IMG/VR virus record: IMGVR_UViG_3300045988_097942
Strand: one strand, 5' to 3'
Source of the DNA: a virus
Length of the DNA: 64,000 nt
A program made the position numbers and the translations under genes. Positions 36,712 through 47,931 of this stretch are shown here, in pieces. Under the pieces are notes generated by a model. It saw only the letters and a list, made by a program, of their open reading frames with translations, searched no databases and was not told the origin of the DNA. Each line of letters opens with the position of its first letter. Positions within the stretch are counted from its first letter, which is position 1.

Positions 36712-37944
36712 TTACATCATTTGCGCTAACTGAGCAATTCTACTTCTATATATATTTACTAATGCAACTTCTCCATATACTTTATCGCTTCTAAAGATTT
36801 CTGATACTCGTCTCATACCATTATTATTACCAGCATATATTGATAAATCAACTTGAGCATCACTATCTCCATCTAAGATACAGATTGAATCTTCTCCAAT
36901 TCTTTGAAGAGCTAATCTCATTAGTTCAATATCTAAATTTTGTGCTTCAGTAATGTAGATACCTGCTTTTAAACCTGTAGTATCATATCCACGAATATCA
37001 GACATTGGTAATAAATCTATTTTACCTTCATATATTAAACGTTCTACTTCAGCTCTATCACCAAGCTTACTTGATAAGAAGTTACCTATTTGAGAATCAA
37101 GTAATTTTTCTGTGCGGGAACCTGGATAATATCCTAATTTAGCTGAACCAGAAGTTGCTACAGTATTACAAAAAATAATTATTTTATCAATATCTCCTTT
37201 TTCTAATAAAGAAAATAAGTATCCTATAGCTAGATATGATTTTCCTGTGCCTGCACATCCGCGAATCATAGTTATCTTGTTATTATGTAAACTATCCATT
37301 GCTATTGTTTGATAAGCATCTTTTGGCTTTATTTTTCCAAACATTTTGCTATTGAAAGCAATAAATGGCACTTGCTTAAAACCATCTTCTGTATATTTAT
37401 ATTTATCAATAATTTCTCCTTCTTTATTTTTAATTAGAAGGTATTCATTAATATTTATATCCCAATCAATAGCTGGATTAAATAAATCTGAATAAATTTG
37501 TGCAATTTTTTCTTCTGTATCACAAGTTACTACTCTATATCCAGAATAATTTTGCTCAGTTAATTTAATATATTCAACTTTTAATCCCATTAAACTAGCT
37601 AAATGTTTGCAACACAAATCTTCAGTTACAAAAGTAATAGGATTATCATTAGAATTGCTTTTTAATGCACTTATAATAATTCTACTATCATCTGTCATAG
37701 GAAGAATAGCTGAATTTTTAATATCTTCATCCCAGTCTTGGAGATAAGTAATAATATCATATTCTCCTTCATGCTCATCTAAAAGATGTAATAGTCTTCG
37801 AGCACGAAACTTTATTTCTGGGTCTTTATTAGCAGAGGTTTTGATATTTTCCAATTCTCTAAATGTAATTGTACTTACTTCAAAACGTTCATTAAATGCC
37901 TCATGTAGTTTATTCAATAGAGCACAAGTGTCGTAAAAAATCAT
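36712..37944 (-). CDS. PhoH-like ATPase with an N-terminal PIN domain
   Basis: PIN acidic residues (MIFYDTCALL) and Walker A GCAGTGKSY. Confidence 0.8.
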   Translation of the reverse strand: MIFYDTCALLNKLHEAFNERFEVSTITFRELENIKTSANKDPEIKFRARRLLHLLDEHEGEYDIITYLQDWDEDIKNSAILPMTDDSRIIISALKSNSNDNPITFVTEDLCCKHLASLMGLKVEYIKLTEQNYSGYRVVTCDTEEKIAQIYSDLFNPAIDWDININEYLLIKNKEGEIIDKYKYTEDGFKQVPFIAFNSKMFGKIKPKDAYQTIAMDSLHNNKITMIRGCAGTGKSYLAIGYLFSLLEKGDIDKIIIFCNTVATSGSAKLGYYPGSRTEKLLDSQIGNFLSSKLGDRAEVERLIYEGKIDLLPMSDIRGYDTTGLKAGIYITEAQNLDIELMRLALQRIGEDSICILDGDSDAQVDLSIYAGNNNGMRRVSEIFRSDKVYGEVALVNIYRSRIAQLAQMM

Positions 37945-38086
37945 ATATTTTTACTTCCTTTCTTATTCTGTTCATTTGAATTTAAAAAATAGGACATATT
38001 GATTAACTATTTTTACCCTATTTATATAATTATAACATATTTTTTATTAAAAATAAAATAGACCTTGCTTTAGCAAGGTCTACATA

Positions 38087-38368
38087 TTAATCGTTTTTAC
38101 GATTGACTGTGGTATTCTTAAAGAAGCTACCAATTACACCAAGAGTTCCGCACATAAGAGGCAAAGACTCTTTTGCAATATTAAAACCAAGTAATCCTAA
38201 GCCTTGAATCATTGTGTCACCAAAAGTTACTTTAATTATCCATCCTGTTATCCAACCGCAACAGAATCCAATGAATGGGGACACCAGAATAAGAAGAATT
38301 GCAAGAACAATCACTCCAAAGCATCCAAGTGCGGCTACTGTATCATCATTTTTATTATAATTATACAT
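38087..38368 (-). CDS. Small membrane protein
   Basis: Two predicted TM helices. Confidence 0.35.
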   Translation of the reverse strand: MYNYNKNDDTVAALGCFGVIVLAILLILVSPFIGFCCGWITGWIIKVTFGDTMIQGLGLLGFNIAKESLPLMCGTLGVIGSFFKNTTVNRKND

Positions 38369-38920
38369 TTATTCGTCTCTTAACTTCTTTATTTCTACTA
38401 TAAGGTCTTCAAGATTTACTGGGCTACAGTCATGAGAATCTACACCAACATGATACATATAAGTGCGGATTCCTGATTCATCAGAAAAGAAATTTGTTTG
38501 CTGATGAGTGTGACCATACAGTCCAAGTACGCGATTATTATTTCCGTTAGCTGTGATAGTCGGATAGTGGGTACATACGAAAGTGTGTTTACCCATTTTA
38601 ATTCGGTATCCCATCTGGATATCCTTGAAAAAGTGATTAGTTGCATATGCCTTAAGTCTAGCATCAGTATCATGATTACCAAAAGCAAGATACTTTTCAC
38701 CTTTTAGTTTATTAACTAAGCGGAGTCCCGCCTGAAGGTCTGCTCCCAACATTACATCGCCAAGATGATAAACAATGTCTCCATCCTTAATAGTCTCATT
38801 CCACTTAGTGAGGATTGCTTCATTCATATCCTGTACATTCTGAAAACCACGCGGCTTCCAAAGGAAATCTTTGTCATGGTTAAAGTGAGTATCACTTGTT
38901 AGCCAAATTGTTCTATCCAT
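38369..38920 (-). CDS. Calcineurin-like metallophosphoesterase; likely the polynucleotide 3'-phosphatase partner of the adjacent kinase
   Basis: MPP motifs DTHFNH, GDVM, GNHD and GHTH. Shares a stop/start junction with the pnk-like gene. Confidence 0.6.
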   Translation of the reverse strand: MDRTIWLTSDTHFNHDKDFLWKPRGFQNVQDMNEAILTKWNETIKDGDIVYHLGDVMLGADLQAGLRLVNKLKGEKYLAFGNHDTDARLKAYATNHFFKDIQMGYRIKMGKHTFVCTHYPTITANGNNNRVLGLYGHTHQQTNFFSDESGIRTYMYHVGVDSHDCSPVNLEDLIVEIKKLRDE

Positions 38921-39411
38921 TACATTTCCTCCTTTACTTCAATAGGTTTATTAGGTTCTACAATAAAAATTTTCTTAATTCCTTCCTCAAATTCAGGCAT
39001 CTCAATCTGATAAAACATACGACGGATTGCACTTACAGGAACAAAACTTCTAGTTCCCTCTCTGTTCTGATTTTGTCCGATACAAGTTTCAAGCGGAGTC
39101 TTAATCCAGACTACATCAACTTCAATATTCAGTTCAGGGTTGATAGCAGTAAGAAGTTTATTCCTTGATGCCTTATTCAGATGTGTGGCGTCCGCAAACA
39201 CATCATAGCCATTTTCCAAAGCATTGTTAATTCTTCTTGTATACTCCTTAAAAACCTGTTTTTCTTTGGAGAAGTATTCTTCATCTTCCGCGACCATAGA
39301 AAATCTTACATCATCGCGAGATACCCATACAGAGTGCTCATCAAGATGATTTTGTATCCATGTGCTTTTCCCAGACCCAGGAGTTCCCATTACAATATAT
39401 AATTTATTCAT
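38920..39411 (-). CDS. Polynucleotide 5'-kinase (T4 Pnk kinase-domain-like)
   Basis: GTPGSGKSTW and RDDVR, matching T4 Pnk GCPGSGKSTW and RDDYR, plus the NR.RG..VP lid. Confidence 0.8.
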   Translation of the reverse strand: MNKLYIVMGTPGSGKSTWIQNHLDEHSVWVSRDDVRFSMVAEDEEYFSKEKQVFKEYTRRINNALENGYDVFADATHLNKASRNKLLTAINPELNIEVDVVWIKTPLETCIGQNQNREGTRSFVPVSAIRRMFYQIEMPEFEEGIKKIFIVEPNKPIEVKEEM

Positions 39412-39412
39412 T

Positions 39413-39811
39413 TTACCACCCTCTATTTAGTAAATTTTTAGTTTCATCATTAGGATTTTCTTTTATAATCCTATGACCACATTTGTAGCTATGATTTGAG
39501 TTCCAACATCTTCCATGTTTATTATATTCACATTGAATCTTACTACAAGTCATTAAATCTGCAACAGGAATTCTATTTCCATCAATAAATCGTCCTAACC
39601 TAAACTCTTCCTCAAAATCTTCTCGACTATAAGAGCCAAAAGGTCGCACTTCCGCGTGATTTGTTTCTTTCCTGCAATATAAACAAAATAACTTTTTTAA
39701 ATGACCTGCTTCTCTCTGTTGTCCAGGTTTTCTTGTAATAGGAATGCCTCTCTTTCCACAAGCTGTGCAATAAAATTCACTTGTAGTAATTTCTCCTTTT
39801 TTTGTACCCAT
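39413..39811 (-). CDS. Hypothetical zinc-ribbon protein
   Basis: CTACG...CLYCRKE plus extra Cys/His. Confidence 0.35.
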   Translation of the reverse strand: MGTKKGEITTSEFYCTACGKRGIPITRKPGQQREAGHLKKLFCLYCRKETNHAEVRPFGSYSREDFEEEFRLGRFIDGNRIPVADLMTCSKIQCEYNKHGRCWNSNHSYKCGHRIIKENPNDETKNLLNRGW

Positions 39812-39860
39812 AATTCATCAAATCCTTTCTCTTTATCTTATATAAATATTTTATCATATT

Positions 39861-39898
39861 TTTTTTAAAAAATAAAGTGCAGAAATTAATCTGCACTT
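39861..39898 (-). terminator. Rho-independent terminator ending the NAD operon
   Basis: aagtgcag/ctgcactt stem whose loop contains the nadE stop codon, plus a U-run. Confidence 0.65.
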
Positions 39899-40629
39899 TT
39901 CGGTTGGAAATCTGCTATAGGTCGTAATTTAAAGAGATTTTGTTCATGTAATTTGTCAATTTTTTCTTTTATTGCGGTTGGCGGTTCTATTCCATCCCCA
40001 ATATAAGTATCAAGTGTTTCATAGCTAAATCCCAAATTATCTTCATCAGTCTTTCCGCATAAACCATCTTCTGGAACTTTTTCTATAAATTCAGCAGGAA
40101 GTCCTAATTCATAACCAATAGCTTTAACTTCTCTTACTAAAAGATTATGCAATGGTGAAAAATCTCCTGCTGCATCTCCAAAGATAGTAAAATAGCCAAT
40201 CCAATTTTCACTTTTATTACAAGTATTTACAACACGTCCATTTAATGTTTGGGAATAAGCATATAATGTACACATTCTTATTCTTGCTGGCATATTAGTC
40301 TGTGCTTGTGTGGAAAGAGTTAAAAATACATGATTATCTATTGCTTCAACGGCATCTTTAATATTAGATAAATAAGATTTAATACCAAGATATTTTATCA
40401 CTTCTTCTGAAGTCTGAATACTTTGCTCTCCTTGTGGCATCATAATTCCAATAACTTTATCTTTACCAAGTGCTTCTACGCAAAGAGCAGCTGCGATAGT
40501 AGAATCTTTTCCGCCTGATATACCAATAATAGCAACACAATCTTTACCATTTTTATCAAACCAATCTCTAATCCATTGAATACACTCATCTTTTGTTTTC
40601 TTTGCATCAAATTCGATTGAGGACATCAT
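39886..40629 (-). CDS. nadE: NH3-dependent NAD+ synthetase
   Basis: GISGGKDSTIAAAL PP-loop and overall similarity to E. coli NadE. Confidence 0.85.
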   Translation of the reverse strand: MMSSIEFDAKKTKDECIQWIRDWFDKNGKDCVAIIGISGGKDSTIAAALCVEALGKDKVIGIMMPQGEQSIQTSEEVIKYLGIKSYLSNIKDAVEAIDNHVFLTLSTQAQTNMPARIRMCTLYAYSQTLNGRVVNTCNKSENWIGYFTIFGDAAGDFSPLHNLLVREVKAIGYELGLPAEFIEKVPEDGLCGKTDEDNLGFSYETLDTYIGDGIEPPTAIKEKIDKLHEQNLFKLRPIADFQPKSAD

Positions 40630-41224
40630 AAAACCTCCTTAAATATTCATATACATTTTCTGGTACAATATCTTTTACTTCTTCAAATTTACCTTGCTCA
40701 CATAAACTTCTAACTAAACTTGAAGAAATATTATTTTTTGGAATTTCTATTTCTTGGAAATGACTTTTATATCTTTCTAAACCAGCTTTTTGCAAAGATT
40801 CTTCAAGATTTTCATTTTCTCTTGTACAGGCAATAAACATATTTTCCTCAACAAGAGGTTGCCAATTATACCAAGTGGTCAAAGTTGATATATTATCCAT
40901 TCCTAAACATATATAAAAATTATAAAATTTATAATCCTTATCAAAGCAATCTTTTAATTCTTGAACTGTATCATATGTCTTTTTTGGAAGAAAACTATTT
41001 ACTTCTGTAGGAATATATGTCATATCTTTTGGCGTAGCTTCTTCAATCAATCTACAGCGGCTATGCCCTGGAATCAAAGTCTTTTTCTTTGCCACATAGG
41101 TATCATGAGCTGGGATGAAGTATACCATATTAGCATTGACCGCCTTTTGGGCGGTCTTTGCCATTTCTATATGAGCATTGGTTATTGGATTGAAGCTGCC
41201 TGGTATAAGCAGAATATTATTCAT
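40607..41224 (-). CDS. Nicotinate/nicotinamide mononucleotide adenylyltransferase (NadD/NadM type)
   Basis: PGSFNPITNAHIEM ((H/T)xGH motif) and ISSSLVR (SxTxxR motif). Confidence 0.75.
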   Translation of the reverse strand: MNNILLIPGSFNPITNAHIEMAKTAQKAVNANMVYFIPAHDTYVAKKKTLIPGHSRCRLIEEATPKDMTYIPTEVNSFLPKKTYDTVQELKDCFDKDYKFYNFYICLGMDNISTLTTWYNWQPLVEENMFIACTRENENLEESLQKAGLERYKSHFQEIEIPKNNISSSLVRSLCEQGKFEEVKDIVPENVYEYLRRFYDVLNRI

Positions 41225-42431
41225 GCTCCATTCTCCAATCTATACATCTCTGTAAATAATCTACATACGCGGGATTTTTACACATTCCCTTGCCAGGTGT
41301 ATCAGAAATCTTAGCTACATCCTGTCCGTTACAAAGAGTTGTTTTCATAACAATGTTTAAAGGAGTTGCGATAGTATCATTACTTAAATAAGTTCCAATA
41401 CCGAAAGCTGCCTTAGCTCTACCATTAAAATGTCTAAATAGTTTATCTGCTCTTTCAAAATTTAAGCTATCACTGAATAGTAAAGTTTTAGTTTTAGCAT
41501 CAATTCCAAGATTTTCATAGTGCTCAATCATCTTTTCGCCCCACTCAATCGGGTCACCACTATCATGACGAACGCCACTGAAGAGAGTTGCGTATGTCAG
41601 TTGAAAATCTTTTAAGAAACAATCAGTGGTGATTGCATCTGTCAAAGCAGTTCCATTTAGCACTCCGTATTCTTTTACCCACGCGTCTAATGCATACCAG
41701 TTAGAATATGCAGGATTATGTTTATGATTGCCTTGACCCACGCACATAATCCATTCATGAGCCATTGTTCCAACAGGCGTTAAACCAAACTTCTTAGCAA
41801 GATACACATTGGAAGTTCCAACAAATCTTGATGCACAATGTGCTGTGTCATTCAAATGAGAGAACTTCTCAACTACTAGTTCCTGAGCTTCCGCAGATAA
41901 TCTACGGCGGAGACCAAATTCAGAGAATACGCCTACATACCATTTGCCAGATTTGAGATTAGTGAACTTTTCTTCAAGTCTTTCTTTGAAGCTAGCAATT
42001 AGAGTATCATAGTTATAGTTCATGCGGAAATAAACCTCATTAACGATAGCTAGAGTAGGAATTTCATACATAGAAGTGTTTAACCATGTTCCTCTTGTTT
42101 CAATACTTAATCCGCATTCAGCGTCGGCGGTAATCTCGAAATCTTCAAAACGCGGCTGCCACAGACGAAGAAAGTCTACATAGCTACCTTTAATCCACTT
42201 GATATTTTCAAGATAAGTCAGTTCATCTTCTGTAAAGCGCAGTTCACAATATGCTTTAATCTGTTCTTTAATTTCTTCAACCATTTCAGCAGTAAACTTC
42301 ACATCAGTATTTCTACATTTAAAAGTCCAAGTGGTTTTGTAGTCAGAAAACTGATGATAGATAGCCTGTCCCATGCTGAATTTATACATATCATTTTCCA
42401 GTAAGCTGGTGATAATTCTTTGCAATCTCAT
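41217..42431 (-). CDS. pncB: Nicotinate phosphoribosyltransferase
   Basis: Extensive similarity to E. coli PncB: SLLENDMYKFSMGQA, FVGTSNVYLA, TPVGTMAHEW, GVRHDSGDPIEWGEK and AKISDTPGK. Confidence 0.9.
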   Translation of the reverse strand: MRLQRIITSLLENDMYKFSMGQAIYHQFSDYKTTWTFKCRNTDVKFTAEMVEEIKEQIKAYCELRFTEDELTYLENIKWIKGSYVDFLRLWQPRFEDFEITADAECGLSIETRGTWLNTSMYEIPTLAIVNEVYFRMNYNYDTLIASFKERLEEKFTNLKSGKWYVGVFSEFGLRRRLSAEAQELVVEKFSHLNDTAHCASRFVGTSNVYLAKKFGLTPVGTMAHEWIMCVGQGNHKHNPAYSNWYALDAWVKEYGVLNGTALTDAITTDCFLKDFQLTYATLFSGVRHDSGDPIEWGEKMIEHYENLGIDAKTKTLLFSDSLNFERADKLFRHFNGRAKAAFGIGTYLSNDTIATPLNIVMKTTLCNGQDVAKISDTPGKGMCKNPAYVDYLQRCIDWRMEHE

Positions 42432-42442
42432 ATTTCCTCTCC

Positions 42443-42922
42443 TTATTCGTTAATTACATCAATTTGGCAGCTCTTCATTACTTCCAACGCAGCTTGATGC
42501 TTCTCAGGAGTGACGCCCGCGCAGCACTTAGCGTCAACCGTAATATGCATATTTGGATATAAAGCTCTTAAAATAAGCGCATTTGAAATTACACAGATAT
42601 CAGTACATAAGCCGCAAATCTCAATCTCGTCAATGGTATCAATCCAGTTGTCAAGAACTCTTATCCAATTATCATATCCGAATGTATTCTTGGAAATAAC
42701 TTCTTCATTAGCTTTAACCTCAATTTCAGGGATAATATGCCATCCCTCTGTGGCAACGATACAATGAGGAAAAGGGAGCTTCTCTCCTTCAAGAGTTTCC
42801 ATATAATTTTCATAATGAGTATCTTTGGTGAAAACTACTACATCGTTTGCCGCCCTACATTCTTCAATTTTCTTTACTACAGCAGGCACAATCGTCTGTG
42901 CTTCCGACGTACCCAGTGCCAT
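42443..42922 (-). CDS. pncA: Nicotinamidase (isochorismatase family)
   Basis: DTHYEN...HC metal site and the catalytic Cys context ICGLCTDICV. Confidence 0.75.
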   Translation of the reverse strand: MALGTSEAQTIVPAVVKKIEECRAANDVVVFTKDTHYENYMETLEGEKLPFPHCIVATEGWHIIPEIEVKANEEVISKNTFGYDNWIRVLDNWIDTIDEIEICGLCTDICVISNALILRALYPNMHITVDAKCCAGVTPEKHQAALEVMKSCQIDVINE

Positions 42923-43001
42923 GGATACGAAATCATTTTACATATCTACAACAATTAAGATTTTCATATTTTTCTTTCCTTTTCTCTCATTTCTTATATA
43001 T

Positions 43002-43030
43002 ATTATAACAAAAATTTTAATAAAAATAAA
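43002..43030 (-). promoter_or_regulatory. Promoter of the NAD operon: class-B TTTATT-N17-TATAAT, fused to the upstream terminator
   Basis: Minus strand reads ccTTTATTtttattaaaatttttgtTATAAT, directly after the hairpin at 43029-43054. Confidence 0.5.
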
Positions 43031-43055
43031 GGAGTAGGTTTTAACCTACTCCTTA
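43021..43055 (-). terminator. Rho-independent terminator
   Basis: aaggagtaggtt/aacctactcctt stem plus a U-run. Confidence 0.7.
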
Positions 43056-43057
43056 TC

Positions 43058-43402
43058 TTAATCAATCGTCTCTACATTGAAAGGAATCCACATTTTAGGA
43101 TTGAAGTTAAGAGTGTATTTATACTTATCAACATCGCCGTCTGTTATATCCTCGACTACATAAGTAACATTATCAGACAATCCGATAAAATGTTTCTTAT
43201 ATCTACCATACTCATCCTCAACTGTAACTTCAAGTTGATTATCCGCAACATCAGCATTTATAGACATTTTTCCAGTCATTTGAAAGACAACATCACCCTG
43301 TAAGCAATTAATGACTGTAATTTGTCGCACAGTATTGAAATTATCTGCTTGCTGAGAGATGTTATAGGATACCCTCTCTGCTTCTGTTGAGCATCCGCCC
43401 AA
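43058..43402 (-). CDS. Hypothetical protein, likely a frameshifted lipoprotein
   Basis: The track ORF starts at TTG. About 40 nt upstream, an RBS plus ATG (43442) encodes MKKFFTIMLMVFML in the +1 frame. Deleting one G from the GGG run at 43398-43400 would give MKKFFTIMLMVFMLGGCSTEAE, a textbook lipobox. Confidence 0.45.
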   Translation of the reverse strand: MGGCSTEAERVSYNISQQADNFNTVRQITVINCLQGDVVFQMTGKMSINADVADNQLEVTVEDEYGRYKKHFIGLSDNVTYVVEDITDGDVDKYKYTLNFNPKMWIPFNVETID

Positions 43403-43467
43403 GCATAAATACCATTAACATAATAGTGAAAAACTTTTTCATTATTTTATTCTCCTTTTTCATTATC

Positions 43468-44679
43468 TTATCCATTATGGTACTTGAGTAAAAACTCATT
43501 GGAAACCGCCTTAAAGCTACGGGCTCCGTCCTGAGACCTGAATACTAGACCTTCACGCATTCCGCCATCAATTACAGACTTGTCAGTTGCAATCGCAAGT
43601 AACTCCTCTACAGTATCAGGTAATACGAAATGCTCGTCAACGATAGGTACCCAAGGAATACCATATTCAGCTAAGATTTCTTTAGCCTCTACAGAGTTCA
43701 AACGACCTCTATCAGAGAAGATAAGATTAAATCCTACGAAGTCATGTTCTTTAAGACCATATTCCCTCTTTTGGATTCCTACACCATAAGTCTCACCCTG
43801 GAGAGTTGCCCACTCAAGGTTATACTTCTCAACTAAAGCTGCGAGTACGTCCTCAAAATGATACTTTTCAGCCATTCCAGTGTAGACATTAGTCTCATAA
43901 TAGCAACCCTTATCTGGTTTGTCAAAGACTACATTACGAGAACAGATGTAAAATTCGTGTTTCCTTCTACCCGTTCTACGATATGTAGCAGTAGTAGAAG
44001 TTCCATCAATTTTCTCTGTTGCAATCCATTCAGACTTATCTTCAAGAATCCAAGTCATGTTCTGTACACGCTCTTCATCTGTCTTAGAAACCCAGCTCGG
44101 CCATCCGTTCTTCTTATCTTTCTTTTTACCAAAGAGTGCAAACATAACTTTACGTCCCCACTCACGTCTCATCATCCATTTTGCCCAAGGCTTCTTAAAG
44201 ATATTAGGACGACGCTGTGCCATCTTCTTGTATTTATCAACAGAAGCTGCTTTTCTTTTATTATCTTCCTCAACCGCGTAGGTAACACCGATAACCTCGG
44301 TTACACCCTCATGTTCAATATCTACTCCTTTAGAAATCTGGAACTTAAGACTCTGAACCCAAGAAGGAACTTCAGAGTTCAAAATAAAGTCATCAAGTGC
44401 CATAAGCAGACCCTGAGAAATAACAGTTCCCTTAAAGTATTTCTGAGTTTTAACTTTAAAGTGCTTAGACTCAAGAAACATGAACGGCTCCTTTTCTGGC
44501 ACTTTAGAGTCAATTTCAAAATAGATAGCATAGTCTCTAACTTGGAACTGACCTTTCTTTACCATAATTCTCCATCCACCAACATGAGCAAGTTCAACTC
44601 TATCAGCTCCGGCGATAGGAGAAATGCCATCAATCTTTACTACATATGCTAATTCTCTTTCTCCCTTTGCATTTAACAT
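43468..44679 (-). CDS. ATP-dependent RNA ligase (Rnl family)
   Basis: Motif I EKIDGTS, motif IV EGLVFR and motif V FKAVSNEFLLK. A distinct DNA ligase is encoded elsewhere in the window. Confidence 0.65.
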   Translation of the reverse strand: MLNAKGERELAYVVKIDGISPIAGADRVELAHVGGWRIMVKKGQFQVRDYAIYFEIDSKVPEKEPFMFLESKHFKVKTQKYFKGTVISQGLLMALDDFILNSEVPSWVQSLKFQISKGVDIEHEGVTEVIGVTYAVEEDNKRKAASVDKYKKMAQRRPNIFKKPWAKWMMRREWGRKVMFALFGKKKDKKNGWPSWVSKTDEERVQNMTWILEDKSEWIATEKIDGTSTTATYRRTGRRKHEFYICSRNVVFDKPDKGCYYETNVYTGMAEKYHFEDVLAALVEKYNLEWATLQGETYGVGIQKREYGLKEHDFVGFNLIFSDRGRLNSVEAKEILAEYGIPWVPIVDEHFVLPDTVEELLAIATDKSVIDGGMREGLVFRSQDGARSFKAVSNEFLLKYHNG

Positions 44680-44713
44680 ACTACATCTTTCCTTTCCTTT
44701 TGTTTATATAAAT

Positions 44714-44742
44714 ATTATAACATTTATTTTTTTAAAAATCAA
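44714..44742 (-). promoter_or_regulatory. Sigma70-like promoter TTGATT-N17-TATAAT
   Basis: Minus strand reads TTGATTtttaaaaaaataaatgtTATAAT. Confidence 0.6.
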
Positions 44743-44755
44743 TAATATAATTTAT

Positions 44756-45346
44756 TTATATTTCAATTTCATATGCCGCAGCAAGAGTATCATTGACACT
44801 TCTAATATTTTCACGAAGAACATAAAGAATATCTGCTAACTCAGGATATTTATATTTACCCTGTTTTAAAACTGGAAGTAACATATTTGCTGTTTCTTTT
44901 ACATTTTTTTCAATTCTTTCTTTTTCAAATGTTCCCGCCATAGTTCGCAAATTCATATAACGGTCAAGACCTTTTACTACTAAAGCCCGCCTATTATGAA
45001 GAAGATTTTTAAAATATCTAGCTTTTGTTACTTGTTTATCTTCTCCTTCAATACATTCAATAGTCATATATCGAACAGCATCTTTTACCTTATCACAAAC
45101 AGGCAGCTCTCTATAATTTACACCACAATCTTCAATTACATCATGCAATAAGATAGTCGCAATAATACAATCATCTTTTACTCCAAGAGCAACTGCATAA
45201 CAAGCCATTTGTAAAGGATGAATAATATAAGGAGTAACGCCATCTTTTCTGAATTGTCCTTCATGCTTTTCTTTTGCATATCCAAGAGCTTTCATACTCT
45301 CAGTAAAACCAGCGCCAGTAATATACCCTTTTAAATAAGTGTACAT
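44756..45346 (-). CDS. HD-domain (p)ppGpp hydrolase-like protein (RelA/SpoT HD, Mesh1-like)
   Basis: HPLQMACYAVALGVKDDCIIATILLHDVIEDCG matches the SpoT HD-domain signature. Confidence 0.65.
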   Translation of the reverse strand: MYTYLKGYITGAGFTESMKALGYAKEKHEGQFRKDGVTPYIIHPLQMACYAVALGVKDDCIIATILLHDVIEDCGVNYRELPVCDKVKDAVRYMTIECIEGEDKQVTKARYFKNLLHNRRALVVKGLDRYMNLRTMAGTFEKERIEKNVKETANMLLPVLKQGKYKYPELADILYVLRENIRSVNDTLAAAYEIEI

Positions 45347-45389
45347 TTTTTCAACATTATATTCAGTTATAATATTACTCCTTTCTTAT

Positions 45390-46043
45390 TTAAAAATCAA
45401 ATTCGTAATCAGGCTCTTTTTCAGTTTCTTTTGTAATTTGAAGGAACACAGGAACCCCAATGCCGGTGTAAGACGCAAAGCTGAAGCTGGCATGTCCGCT
45501 GCCGGCGACAAAACAGCAGCTAGCAGAGCTACCAGAGCGAACAGTAGCTAACCACCAGGCGCAGGTTTCACCATCTTCCCAATAACTATTATCTTTACCA
45601 CGATAACCCTTAACTCTTACAACATTGCCTCTTTTATACCATTCAAATTGTTTAATACCTAATTCTTTTTTCTCATCTCCATATTTATTTTGACCAAAAA
45701 CTTGACGCTCACATGGAACAAATAAAAAATCAATATCTTTCATCATACTAACTGGTAAAACTTCTTTATCTCCAATTTTACCAGTTTTATAAATCTGTCT
45801 GAGAATAGAAGGAATCTCTTTATGAGGAGCGCATTTAAAGATTTCATCCATTGAAAAAATATATTTATCTCCATCAATATCAACACAAGTAACAGGATTA
45901 CCTTCAATCATATATCTTTGACCAAGAGCAACCATACCTGCATTAACTGCGGCTTTTAAAGAACATTCAGTTTCATCTGATTTTCTTTTTGGTTTACTGT
46001 CGGAAAATTTAATCATTTTTTTATTACCTCTTTTCTTATACAA
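45390..46043 (-). CDS. Hypothetical protein
   Basis: No recognisable motif. Confidence 0.4.
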   Translation of the reverse strand: MYKKRGNKKMIKFSDSKPKRKSDETECSLKAAVNAGMVALGQRYMIEGNPVTCVDIDGDKYIFSMDEIFKCAPHKEIPSILRQIYKTGKIGDKEVLPVSMMKDIDFLFVPCERQVFGQNKYGDEKKELGIKQFEWYKRGNVVRVKGYRGKDNSYWEDGETCAWWLATVRSGSSASCCFVAGSGHASFSFASYTGIGVPVFLQITKETEKEPDYEFDF

Positions 46044-46091
46044 ATATTATATCAAAATTTTTATTAAAAATCAAAAAGGTAAAAATTTCTT

Positions 46092-46301
46092 TTAGATTGC
46101 TAATTCGCTTAAAATCTTGTTATATTTACTGGTATCCATAGCCTGTTCATATGTATCTTCTTCTACTTTAACTTTAGGCGCAGCAGCCGCCTTATTATTC
46201 TTCTTCTTATTTTTCTTGGTAAGGATACGAATGTCATTTTCAACTTGTTCATGAACATCAACTCTGCCAAGATAATCAAAAAAACTTTCACTCGTTCTCA
46301 T
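46092..46301 (-). CDS. Hypothetical small protein
   Basis: ORF. Confidence 0.3.
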   Translation of the reverse strand: MRTSESFFDYLGRVDVHEQVENDIRILTKKNKKKNNKAAAAPKVKVEEDTYEQAMDTSKYNKILSELAI

Positions 46302-46304
46302 ATT

Positions 46305-46691
46305 TTATACCTCGAATAATTCTGTAATGTCAATAACTTCTCTTGCTAGTGCTGTTTCTTTAATAAAAGTAGTTTCCATTTCATATTCTACATATTCAGT
46401 AGCTAGGTATCTTGTAAATACAAAACCCTGAGCAATAAGAATTTGAGCATCTTCAAGACTATACCAATGAATTAAGTCTTCTTTATGACTACAAGAGCTA
46501 AACCAGTTTCGACCATCCTTATGATAGCGCTCATCGTAGCCCATAGGCAGGTCTTTAGTTTTACAATTCTCTGACTCCCCAATCGTCCAAACTAATTCAT
46601 TATTCAAATTATACCATAATCCTTTTGCAGGGTCTGTACTTTCTAATCTATATAACCACTTAGGTTTATTCATTTTCATTTGCCTCCACAT
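46305..46691 (-). CDS. Hypothetical protein
   Basis: ORF. Confidence 0.4.
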   Translation of the reverse strand: MWRQMKMNKPKWLYRLESTDPAKGLWYNLNNELVWTIGESENCKTKDLPMGYDERYHKDGRNWFSSCSHKEDLIHWYSLEDAQILIAQGFVFTRYLATEYVEYEMETTFIKETALAREVIDITELFEV

Positions 46692-46935
46692 TGATAGAAG
46701 TTAAAAGAAACAAAACAATCAAACATACTTTCCAATTCATATCAAGAGGCGCTTGTATAGCTGTAATGATTGCACTAAATATACCAATTAGATTGATATT
46801 TATTTTAACATCGTTTATAGGGTTCATATTTTCAATATCTTTTTTTATTCTTTTTGGTTTTTGATTAGGCATACATGAATTAGTATAGATACCTTTAAAA
46901 GCCTTGCCATTTGTTTTTCCTGTATATGTTTTCAT
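46666..46935 (-). CDS. Hypothetical small membrane protein
   Basis: Central TM helix. Confidence 0.3.
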   Translation of the reverse strand: MKTYTGKTNGKAFKGIYTNSCMPNQKPKRIKKDIENMNPINDVKININLIGIFSAIITAIQAPLDMNWKVCLIVLFLLTSINVEANENE

Positions 46936-47094
46936 TTTGTTTCCTCTTTAATCGTTATGAGCTAGTCTTAATGCTGCCATTGCTAAACATCCTACAATAA
47001 AACCAGTTATGTATTTTGCTTCAGTAGGAACGGCATTTCCACATGCGCTTCCACAAAAAGATAATGATTAACCAAATTAAATATCAAAATTTTC

Positions 47095-47931
47095 TCATAA
47101 TTTTTCTACTTTCCCTTCCATGTAATCTTTTAAATCTATTGCTACATCATTAAATAGCATAGTTCTATATCTTTCATCTGGTCTTGGATAATCGCGGAAT
47201 TGATGATAATGTCCCCAAAGCCATGCCTTATAATCAAGTTGATACTCAATTTGTCCAAGGTATCTTTCCATATCTTTTTCAACCATTGATTGGTCAACTA
47301 TAGAAAGAAATAAATCAGTAGGTTCATACATAACAGGACAAGTATGAGATAATACTAAATCACAATTCCATCCTTGTTGTTCTATTAAAGCTAAACCAGC
47401 TAATTGTTCACTTTCAGACAACTGTTCCTGTGGAAACCAACTCCAACCCGCTTCAAGTCTTCTATATTTATCTACTGAATAAGCACCAGGAATAACTAAA
47501 GTTTTATAATATTTCTGAACTTCAATATCATCATCAGATGGGTTTTCAGGTGTTACGTAATCTACTCCTGCTGGAATATAATAAAAAGATACAAAATCTT
47601 CTGCATATTTAATGTAAGGATAGTCATTTTCTACCCAAACTTTTCCTCTCCAAAATAATTCTTGATGCCATTTATCTGGATTCTTTTCTGCACAGATACT
47701 TGGTCTTTCTTCATGATTACCACGTACTACAAAATAAGTAAATGGATATTTTCCTAATTCCTTTTTTAATTCTTCATCACGATGATTAAAAAAGAAATTT
47801 AGTCCTGCATCACCAAGTAAGATTAAAGTATTTTCATTGTTATTAAAGGTATATGGATGACGTTGATATAAATCTCGAACAGGTTTCCAACTTCCATGTA
47901 TATCACCCATTAAATAAATCTTTTCGCTCAT
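47095..47931 (-). CDS. Calcineurin-like metallophosphoesterase
   Basis: MGDIHGS, LGDAG and GNHEE motifs. Confidence 0.65.
   Translation of the reverse strand: MSEKIYLMGDIHGSWKPVRDLYQRHPYTFNNNENTLILLGDAGLNFFFNHRDEELKKELGKYPFTYFVVRGNHEERPSICAEKNPDKWHQELFWRGKVWVENDYPYIKYAEDFVSFYYIPAGVDYVTPENPSDDDIEVQKYYKTLVIPGAYSVDKYRRLEAGWSWFPQEQLSESEQLAGLALIEQQGWNCDLVLSHTCPVMYEPTDLFLSIVDQSMVEKDMERYLGQIEYQLDYKAWLWGHYHQFRDYPRPDERYRTMLFNDVAIDLKDYMEGKVEKL

Follow-up and report, generated by a model that had tools for sequence, protein, structure and literature searches.

A Probable Host-Derived NAD+ Salvage Operon with an Interrupted pncA Gene in a Gut Phage Genome

Introduction

Does a gut phage carry its own route from nicotinamide to nicotinamide adenine dinucleotide (NAD+), and is that route complete? 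The question is raised by four consecutive genes on the minus strand of a virus DNA stretch of 64,000 nucleotides (IMG/VR record IMGVR_UViG_3300045988_097942; the whole stretch is referred to here as the window). A first-pass annotation assigned these genes to the nicotinamidase PncA, the nicotinate phosphoribosyltransferase PncB, a NadD-type adenylyltransferase, and the NAD+ synthetase NadE, and proposed that they form a complete Preiss-Handler cassette that rebuilds NAD+ during attack by NAD+-depleting defence systems. The explanation that fits the locus best, and that we regard as very probable from its sequence, is that of an accessory, host-derived NAD+ salvage operon carried by a phage, with pncA broken in this particular genome.

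In the phage lineage to which this genome belongs, PncA would convert nicotinamide to nicotinate, and PncB would combine nicotinate with phosphoribosyl pyrophosphate (PRPP) to give nicotinate mononucleotide (NaMN). NadD would then convert NaMN and ATP to nicotinate adenine dinucleotide (NaAD), and NadE would use NaAD, NH3, and ATP to form NAD+. Transcription would proceed from the operon's own extended -10 promoter, between two terminators. In the present genome codon 10 of pncA has become a TAA through one C-to-T change, so that the route from nicotinate to NAD+, and not that from nicotinamide to NAD+, would be encoded here; the deamidation of nicotinamide would be left to the PncA of the host, an enzyme that the candidate hosts usually have. 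The operon would be expected to raise the capacity of the infected or lysogenic cell to resynthesize NAD+ from niacin-type precursors.

Organization of the Operon

The elements of the operon and its boundaries are given in the order of transcription.

43029..43054, minus strand: terminator hairpin of the preceding VG64-like gene, with a T-run after its 11-bp stem (5 GC pairs); bounds the unit on its upstream side
43002..43010, minus strand: extended -10 promoter element, TGtTATAAT; the true start codon of pncA follows 35 nt downstream
42443..42967, minus strand: pncA, nicotinamidase-type hydrolase of the isochorismatase family, conceptually 174 codons, with a nonsense codon at codon 10
42938..42940, minus strand: in-frame TAA stop at pncA codon 10 (CAA to TAA at the Q of the conserved VDMQNDF)
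41217..42431, minus strand: pncB, nicotinate phosphoribosyltransferase, 404 aa, intact (PF17767 and PF04095)
40607..41224, minus strand: nadD-type nicotinate-mononucleotide adenylyltransferase, 205 aa, intact (PF01467)
39886..40629, minus strand: nadE, single-domain NH3-dependent NAD+ synthetase, 246-247 aa, intact (PF02540, 6e-53)
39874..39899, minus strand: operon-closing terminator hairpin with a T-run after its 10-bp stem, which overlaps the stop codon of nadE

The four open reading frames (ORFs), at 42443-42922, 41217-42431, 40607-41224, and 39886-40629, contain the motifs quoted for them in the first-pass annotation. A gap of 11 nt separates pncA from pncB, pncB and nadD overlap by 8 nt, and nadD and nadE overlap by 23 nt, which fits a single transcription unit. 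The upstream hairpin shows compensatory stem changes among relatives (GTAGGT/ACCTAC vs GCAGAT/AACTGC...; alignment A2), and in the same alignment the extended -10 element is unchanged in 7/7 relatives. No -35 box was called by a consensus scan upstream of TGtTATAAT, and there are no minus-strand terminator-like hairpins between those at 43054-43029 and 39899-39874. A structured leader or riboswitch was considered and dismissed because no Rfam family matched within the cassette and the leader is only ~30 nt long. The motifs, the boundaries, and the assignment to one operon are therefore borne out by the ORFs, their junctions, the extended -10 element, and the two terminators.

The PncB, NadD, and NadE Proteins

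The profiles expected for the four enzymes (PF00857, PF04095/PF17767, PF01467, and PF02540) were all matched, and the 404-aa and 205-aa proteins fall into the expected families (PF04095 and PF17767; PF01467) rather than into unrelated ones. PncB matches PF04095 (2e-66) and PF17767 (5e-28), the N-terminal and catalytic domains both being found, and it scores 417.8 bits against TIGR01514 (cut-off 269.55) and 481.5 against PRK05321 (cut-off 379). Its GTMAHEW motif contains the His of GTxAHEW, which we take to be the phospho-His of the enzyme. A second motif, FVGTSN, has Ser instead of Asp at the base-selecting position, where NAMPT has GTDT. The role of this position is documented by the NAMPT D219S entry (PMC4919578).

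The 205-aa NadD protein matches PF01467 with 63.7 bits (cut-off 21; 3e-17), contains the motifs GSFNPITNAH ((H/T)xxH) and ISSSLVR (ISSxxxR), and aligns end to end with the Gram-positive NadD structures 2h29 and 2qtr (S. aureus, B. anthracis). An identity as a eukaryotic-type NMNAT or as PPAT, prompted by the GSFNPITNAH motif, was dismissed because those matches cover the N-terminal third only and bacterial NadD matches over the full length. NadE scores 169.9 bits against TIGR00552 (cut-off 63.65) and contains the GISGGKDS P-loop (SGGKDS); the glutaminase domain is absent.

The Interrupted pncA Gene

The 159-aa ORF at 42443-42922 is an N-terminally cut reading of a gene of 174 codons, whose true start is the ATG at 42967-42965. 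Upstream of the ORF the in-frame sequence reads ATG(42967) AAA ATC TTA ATT GTT GTA GAT ATG TAA AAT GAT TTC GTA TCC ATG(42922), which translates as MKILIVVDM-stop-NDFVSM. The 159-aa ORF matches PF00857 with 87.7 bits (cut-off 27; 1e-24), the match beginning at profile position 20, and its best solved-structure matches are the PncA proteins of P. horikoshii and M. tuberculosis (1im5, 3pl1). Residues D8, D49, H51, H68, K93, and C125 align with catalytic and metal-binding residues, and the metal-binding DxH...H is kept, with D49, H51, and H68 corresponding to D49, H51, and H71 of M. tuberculosis PncA. The catalytic triad of the M. tuberculosis enzyme is presumably D8, K96, and C138. The equivalent residues are not found on one polypeptide in this genome, as Asp8 lies before the TAA and K93 and C125 lie after it; the Asp-Lys-Cys triad becomes complete only if the stop is read through conceptually, or in the sibling genomes. 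Translation could in principle resume at the ATG of codon 16 (Met16), which has no recognisable ribosome-binding site. The resulting protein would miss Asp8 and strand beta-1 and should therefore be inactive. The nicotinamidase assignment thus stands as far as family and motifs (PF00857) are concerned, but the gene is interrupted, and the claim that every step of the pathway is encoded fails because the nonsense codon precedes the rest of the catalytic core.

The interruption is not shared by the sampled relatives. All 14 sampled members of the PncA 90% cluster are intact at 174 aa, are 93-98% identical, and begin MKILIVVDMQNDF. At the DNA level codon 10 is CAA or CAG in the relatives (alignment A2, L172), and the closest sibling, a human-gut contig from a metagenome scan (L172), has CAA with identical flanks, one base differing at the codon. 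An exact-pattern search of IMG/VR for the pncA start of this species returned no match. One further position sets the protein apart. Residue 66 (window 42767-42772, minus strand) is Phe, where 14/14 close relatives have Val or Ile; it sits two residues before the metal-binding His68 and is the sole private amino-acid change besides the stop codon.

Is the TAA read as a stop? TAA terminates 48/64 genes of the window, ORFs of up to 1,314 aa read normally with the standard code, and the four tRNAs of the window (Cys, Gly, Thr, and Ala) include no suppressor tRNA. Recoding of TAA and suppression were dismissed on these grounds.

A second lesion lies in the adjacent VG64-like lipoprotein gene (PF25682; window 43330-43450, minus strand), where an 8-nt deletion, TTGGATGT, is present between TTGG repeats in comparison with three siblings. 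It hits the region of the signal peptide and LGGC lipobox and puts the signal peptide out of frame.

The same TAA is found in an independent Logan assembly (L081), which shows 100% identity to the window across 9.2 kb. This rules out an artefact of the assembler; L081 probably comes from the same sample as the window, which leaves room for a within-sample variant. It could be proposed that the TAA arose as an artefact of sequencing or belongs to a minority of the phages, the real phage population being pncA+, as this is the only truncated protein among the 15 listed members of an 86-member 90% cluster, at codon 10 it differs from the closest sibling by one base, and the only other assembly with the TAA is the identical one just described. 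We consider this improbable. The base was recovered by two different assembly pipelines, four sources, covering three contigs, list the truncated protein, and the 8-nt deletion in the adjacent gene, an independent lesion, is likewise shared. The shared second lesion and the agreement of the two pipelines argue for a real variant genome rather than a random base error. The pncA nonsense allele is recent and rare.

Host Origin and Conservation in the Phage Lineage

The operon closely resembles salvage operons on the chromosomes of Lachnospiraceae and other Clostridia, which encode these enzymes in an identical order. The phage PncB shares 78-86% of its residues with the chromosomal enzymes of Lachnospiraceae (such as Eubacterium uniforme, Agathobacter, Butyrivibrio, and Roseburia) and other Clostridia, and the corresponding identities are 36-57% for PncA and 46-57% for NadE. 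In the host loci pncA is directly upstream of pncB in 61/80 and nadE is downstream in 22/80, and all four genes are found together in none of the 80. Unlike the chromosomal operon, the phage version has nadD between pncB and nadE, is located in a replication/accessory region behind a phage promoter, and in this genome contains the pncA nonsense allele. The high identity of PncB and the host gene order pncA-pncB(-nadE) indicate that the operon was captured from a host salvage operon of this type, the added nadD being the phage-specific feature.

The gene order recurs, with an intact 174-aa pncA, in relatives that come from nine further sequencing runs or assemblies. The shared order is Thg1-like, phosphoesterase, HD, RNA ligase, VG64, pncA, pncB, nadD, nadE, a Cys-rich 132-aa protein, AAA_33 kinase, phosphoesterase, and PhoH/PIN, and the contigs bearing these PncA sequences are up to ~145 kb long. 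Against two relatives, the ratio of nonsynonymous to synonymous changes (pN/pS) is 0.02-0.03 for pncB and 0.04-0.06 for nadD; the range is 0.02-0.08 for pncA, pncB, and nadD together and 0.22-0.33 for nadE. These low ratios (0.02-0.33) indicate that the four-gene pathway is kept by purifying selection across the lineage.

The Phage Genome and the Neighbourhood of the Operon

The genome is probably that of an SPbeta-like phage of ~140 kb that infects gut Lachnospiraceae. Its DNA polymerase shares 39.6% identity with SPbeta YorL and with the corresponding enzyme of 134-140-kb Enterococcus phages, the alignment spanning 99% of the protein. PHROG matches in the window include topoisomerase II, NrdD, RecJ, DnaB, and an endolysin, an XkdX gene is present, and the holin/endolysin DNA is 73% identical to that of a Terrisporobacter phage. 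The GC content is ~30% and the genes are packed on one strand. Essentially no close relatives at the DNA level were found in INPHARED. No integrase was seen in the window.

Since the identity of PncB to its Lachnospiraceae counterparts reaches 86% and the order pncA-pncB-nadE is common to host loci, the region might be thought to be a bacterial chromosomal operon mistaken for phage DNA. This is extremely unlikely. The flanks are of phage type (the SPbeta-like polymerase, topoisomerase II, NrdD, endolysin, XkdX, VG64, and RNA ligase), sibling contigs retain the same phage flanks, and neither the four-gene arrangement, absent from all 80 host loci, nor the low GC content with one-strand gene packing fits a chromosomal source. 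A host-chromosome origin of the region was dismissed on the flanking genes and the sibling gene order, in agreement with the first-pass annotation, which took the cassette to be phage DNA.

The NAD operon is enclosed by an RNA-repair-like gene set (window 36712-49082, minus strand), an arrangement that is conserved in the siblings. Its members are listed here.

48276-49082, minus strand: Thg1-like
47095-47931, minus strand: Metallophos
44756-45346, minus strand: HD_4
43468-44679, minus strand: RNA ligase with a PHA02142 OB fold
38920-39411, minus strand: AAA_33 kinase
38369-38920, minus strand: Metallophos_2
36712-37944, minus strand: PIN-PhoH

A protein with a microbial-type PARG domain (PF10021, 6e-28) is encoded at 57546-58316 on the minus strand. 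It is a candidate ADP-ribosylation eraser and would be a second NAD+-linked function in the phage.

Other parts of the window have features of their own. Within window 81-1080 on the plus strand, an Rfam RT-2 RNA (RF03077, 94 bits) is directly upstream of, and slightly overlaps, an ORF for a compact 258-aa reverse transcriptase. This ORF heads a short plus-strand block, extending to ~4715, of genes without a family match, the genome being otherwise minus-strand, and PADLOC gave only generic RT/DRT-like matches for the reverse transcriptase. Two neighbouring genes in window 50651-55108 on the minus strand are of a kind rarely expected in a phage. One encodes an 837-aa protein that has a Vault_3 repeat as well as the shoulder domain of the Major Vault Protein (MVP; PF11978, 1e-21), and the other a protein of 517 aa that resembles SPFH/Band 7 proteins and flotillins. 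Neither the MVP-like nor the SPFH protein had a PHROG match, and PADLOC returned nothing for these two or for the PARG protein. In window 60315-63441 on the minus strand, a 494-aa DUF2828 and DUF7788 protein (phrog_850, 'RNA-binding protein') adjoins the array of four tRNAs (Cys, Gly, Thr, and Ala).

Sister Cassettes in Other Gut Phages

Three phage pathways for the reconstitution of NAD+ have been validated experimentally: NARP1 (Adps and Namat), NARP2 (Nampt and Nmnat), and NARP3 (PnuC and NadR). We examined 80 gut-phage loci from IMG/VR (L001-L080) that were found through PncA, to which the following counts refer. In 51 of them pncA is beside PRPS-like (Adps-like) and NAMPT-like (Namat-like) genes, and 46 of these 51 also have nadE. 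Two examples of such PncA-linked IMG/VR loci are given.

L015, 8001-12108: sister cassette
L001, 8001-15520: sister cassette

The NAMPT-like gene matches the solved Namat of a NARP1 phage (PDB 9W5X) at 1e-99, vs 1e-42 for human NAMPT. In the solved Namat, Asp215 hydrogen-bonds nicotinamide, and mutation of the equivalent Asp219 of human NAMPT to Ser switches substrate affinity (PMC4919578). Among 48 full-length PncA-linked Namat-like proteins this position is Ser in 29, Ala in 19, and Asp in none. Nicotinate phosphoribosyltransferases, including the PncB of the window (FVGTSN), have Ser at the equivalent position. The loss of the Asp and the flanking PncA and NadE genes suggest a nicotinate-using, NadE-dependent variant of NARP1, in which the sister Namat-like enzyme would join nicotinate and ADP-ribose pyrophosphate (ADPR-PP) to form NaAD and NadE would finish the synthesis. 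No paper linking NARP1 with NadE or PncA was found in the literature searched. The idea that PncB/NadD and Adps/Namat replace one another in the same slot in close phages was unsupported, as the flanks in the IMG/VR loci show no more than a distant relationship.

The intact cassette and the sister cassette (PncA, Adps-like, Namat-like, and NadE) might together be a family of phage NAD+ reconstitution systems that uses the deamidated branch, a proposal that we put forward tentatively and that is on balance rather doubtful. Such a family would suit hosts that have PncA and are without NAMPT. In these hosts the nicotinamide produced by a defence NADase would be deamidated, and the phage would have to rebuild NAD+ from nicotinate, ending with NadE. 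If the proposal is true, it would be a fourth counter-defence route, and the sister cassette would imply that nicotinate and ADPR-PP are joined to NaAD, a reaction that has no description so far.

Function of the Operon

What does a phage gain from this operon? Several benefits may be considered. That it helps the phage to survive NAD+-depleting defence comes close to an even chance, general NAD+ supply or conversion that benefits the host has an appreciable but somewhat smaller one, and the remainder is left to other or unknown benefits. A counter-defence role of the cassette is plausible, and two observations hint at it: in other gut phages, homologues of these PncA and NadE genes lie on either side of NARP1-enzyme orthologues, and the window encodes a set of RNA-repair functions along with a PARG. 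To read the operon as plain NAD+ supply is no less simple, since it is a copy of the salvage genes, pncA-pncB(-nadE), of the host itself. A demand of an NAD-dependent phage ligase was dismissed as the reason for the cassette, as the DNA ligase of the phage is of the ATP-dependent type.

The first-pass annotation, taken literally, requires that all four enzymes are expressed and that nicotinamide released by NADases is rebuilt to NAD+ by a new counter-defence pathway. The four families in operon order, the intact pncA of the sibling genomes, and the fact that NAD+ reconstitution is a proven phage strategy are all consistent with this, but for the present genome we judge it very unlikely. The TAA at codon 10 precedes everything except Asp8, TAA is the main stop codon, the window has no suppressor tRNA, and the codon-16 ATG lacks a recognisable ribosome-binding site and would yield a product that misses the catalytic Asp. 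Additionally, no defence-system test of any phage Preiss-Handler cluster was found in the literature searched. The operon might instead be a general metabolic helper or a lysogenic-conversion module that adds salvage for a niacin-dependent host, with no specific link to immunity. As such it would sustain NAD+ for phage replication or benefit the lysogen. This is a realistic possibility, although we lean away from it. The operon comes close to duplicating the salvage operon of the host, its own promoter and flanking terminators are typical of morons, and the polymerase is SPbeta-like. According to a 2026 preprint, nadE and pncA of prophages in Eubacterium ramulus (Lachnospiraceae) complement NAD+ synthesis. 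The pncA-pncB1-nadE operon of the host is up-regulated when phage PA5oct infects, which suggests a general demand for NAD+. A helper without a link to immunity is harder to reconcile with the occurrence, in other gut phages, of homologous PncA and NadE genes amid counter-defence enzymes of the NARP1 type, with a neighbourhood rich in candidate counter-defence functions (the RNA repair genes and PARG), and with a window in which no integrase was seen.

The reading that we prefer, an accessory host-derived salvage operon on a phage with pncA broken in this genome, has several observations weighing against it or against parts of it. NadD scores 112.2 bits against TIGR00482, 0.25 bits short of the cut-off of 112.45. 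PncA fails the NCBIfam PRK11609 equivalog (28.5 vs a cut-off of 174 bits), a model built on the longer enterobacterial (E. coli-type) PncA, and nicotinamide is predicted to be its substrate from residues and gene context only. The host is assigned from the similarity of PncB and a distant endolysin match only, and no CRISPR spacer or prophage junction naming a host was found. The lesion in pncA takes out exactly the step that would use nicotinamide released by NADases, which weakens a strict reading of the operon as reconstitution from NADase products in this genome. Finally, the two adjacent lesions may mean that the genome is losing function in this island.

The lineage and the sister cassettes are a concrete candidate for a nicotinate-branch route of NAD+ reconstitution. 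If the intact cassette protects from NAD+-depleting immunity, the NARP concept would extend to Firmicutes gut phages and would gain a nicotinate branch, available in hosts that salvage via PncA and PncB. The natural nonsense allele is a built-in control for this, as it predicts that any protection by the operon of this genome depends on host PncA.

Comparison with Known Phage NAD+ Pathways

The suggestion that the cassette is a distinct new phage solution is not upheld, as Preiss-Handler clusters in phages are already published and annotated in GenBank. A 2024 paper in Microbiome described complete routes, of the salvage or the Preiss-Handler kind, in 174 jumbo phages of the gut and proposed counter-defence without experiments (PMC11662467). 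One of these 'NAD-jumbo phages', Kuafu_71, has a pncB-nadD-nadE cluster (PMC11662467). Like the present genome, the NAD-jumbo phages come from gut samples, have clustered phage PncB, NadD, and NadE, and have been given the same proposed role in supply or counter-defence. The present phage differs in that it is ~140 kb rather than >200 kb, is SPbeta-like, and has pncA in the operon of its lineage; the comparison with Kuafu_71 is by description only. A cultured Sinorhizobium jumbo phage, Phosso (PV764938), also has annotated NadE, PncB, NMN adenylyltransferase, and hydrolase genes within ~6 kb, but these are interspersed with unrelated ORFs, the PncB is only 30% identical, and the host is a proteobacterium. 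In INPHARED, 14 phage records have PncB homologues and 48 have NadE homologues.

The statement that the known phage reconstitution pathways use other sets of enzymes was confirmed by NARP1, NARP2, and NARP3. PncA, PncB, NadD, and NadE are unmentioned in an earlier survey of viral NAD+ systems and in the NARP1/2 preprint. Conversely, the signature genes of the NARP systems gave no match in the window in tblastn searches with gut-phage Adps-like and Namat-like proteins, and no NARP-signature Pfam domains were found in the 39 window proteins scanned, of ~64 window genes. The cassette and NARP1-3 share the same predicted end result, in that the phage rebuilds NAD+ in the infected cell. Unlike the validated NARP1-3, the predicted pathway of the cassette runs via nicotinate, NaMN, and NaAD and needs NadE. 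It is a canonical, host-derived pathway already reported in phages, found here as a four-gene version with its first gene knocked out in a ~140-kb SPbeta-like Lachnospiraceae phage.

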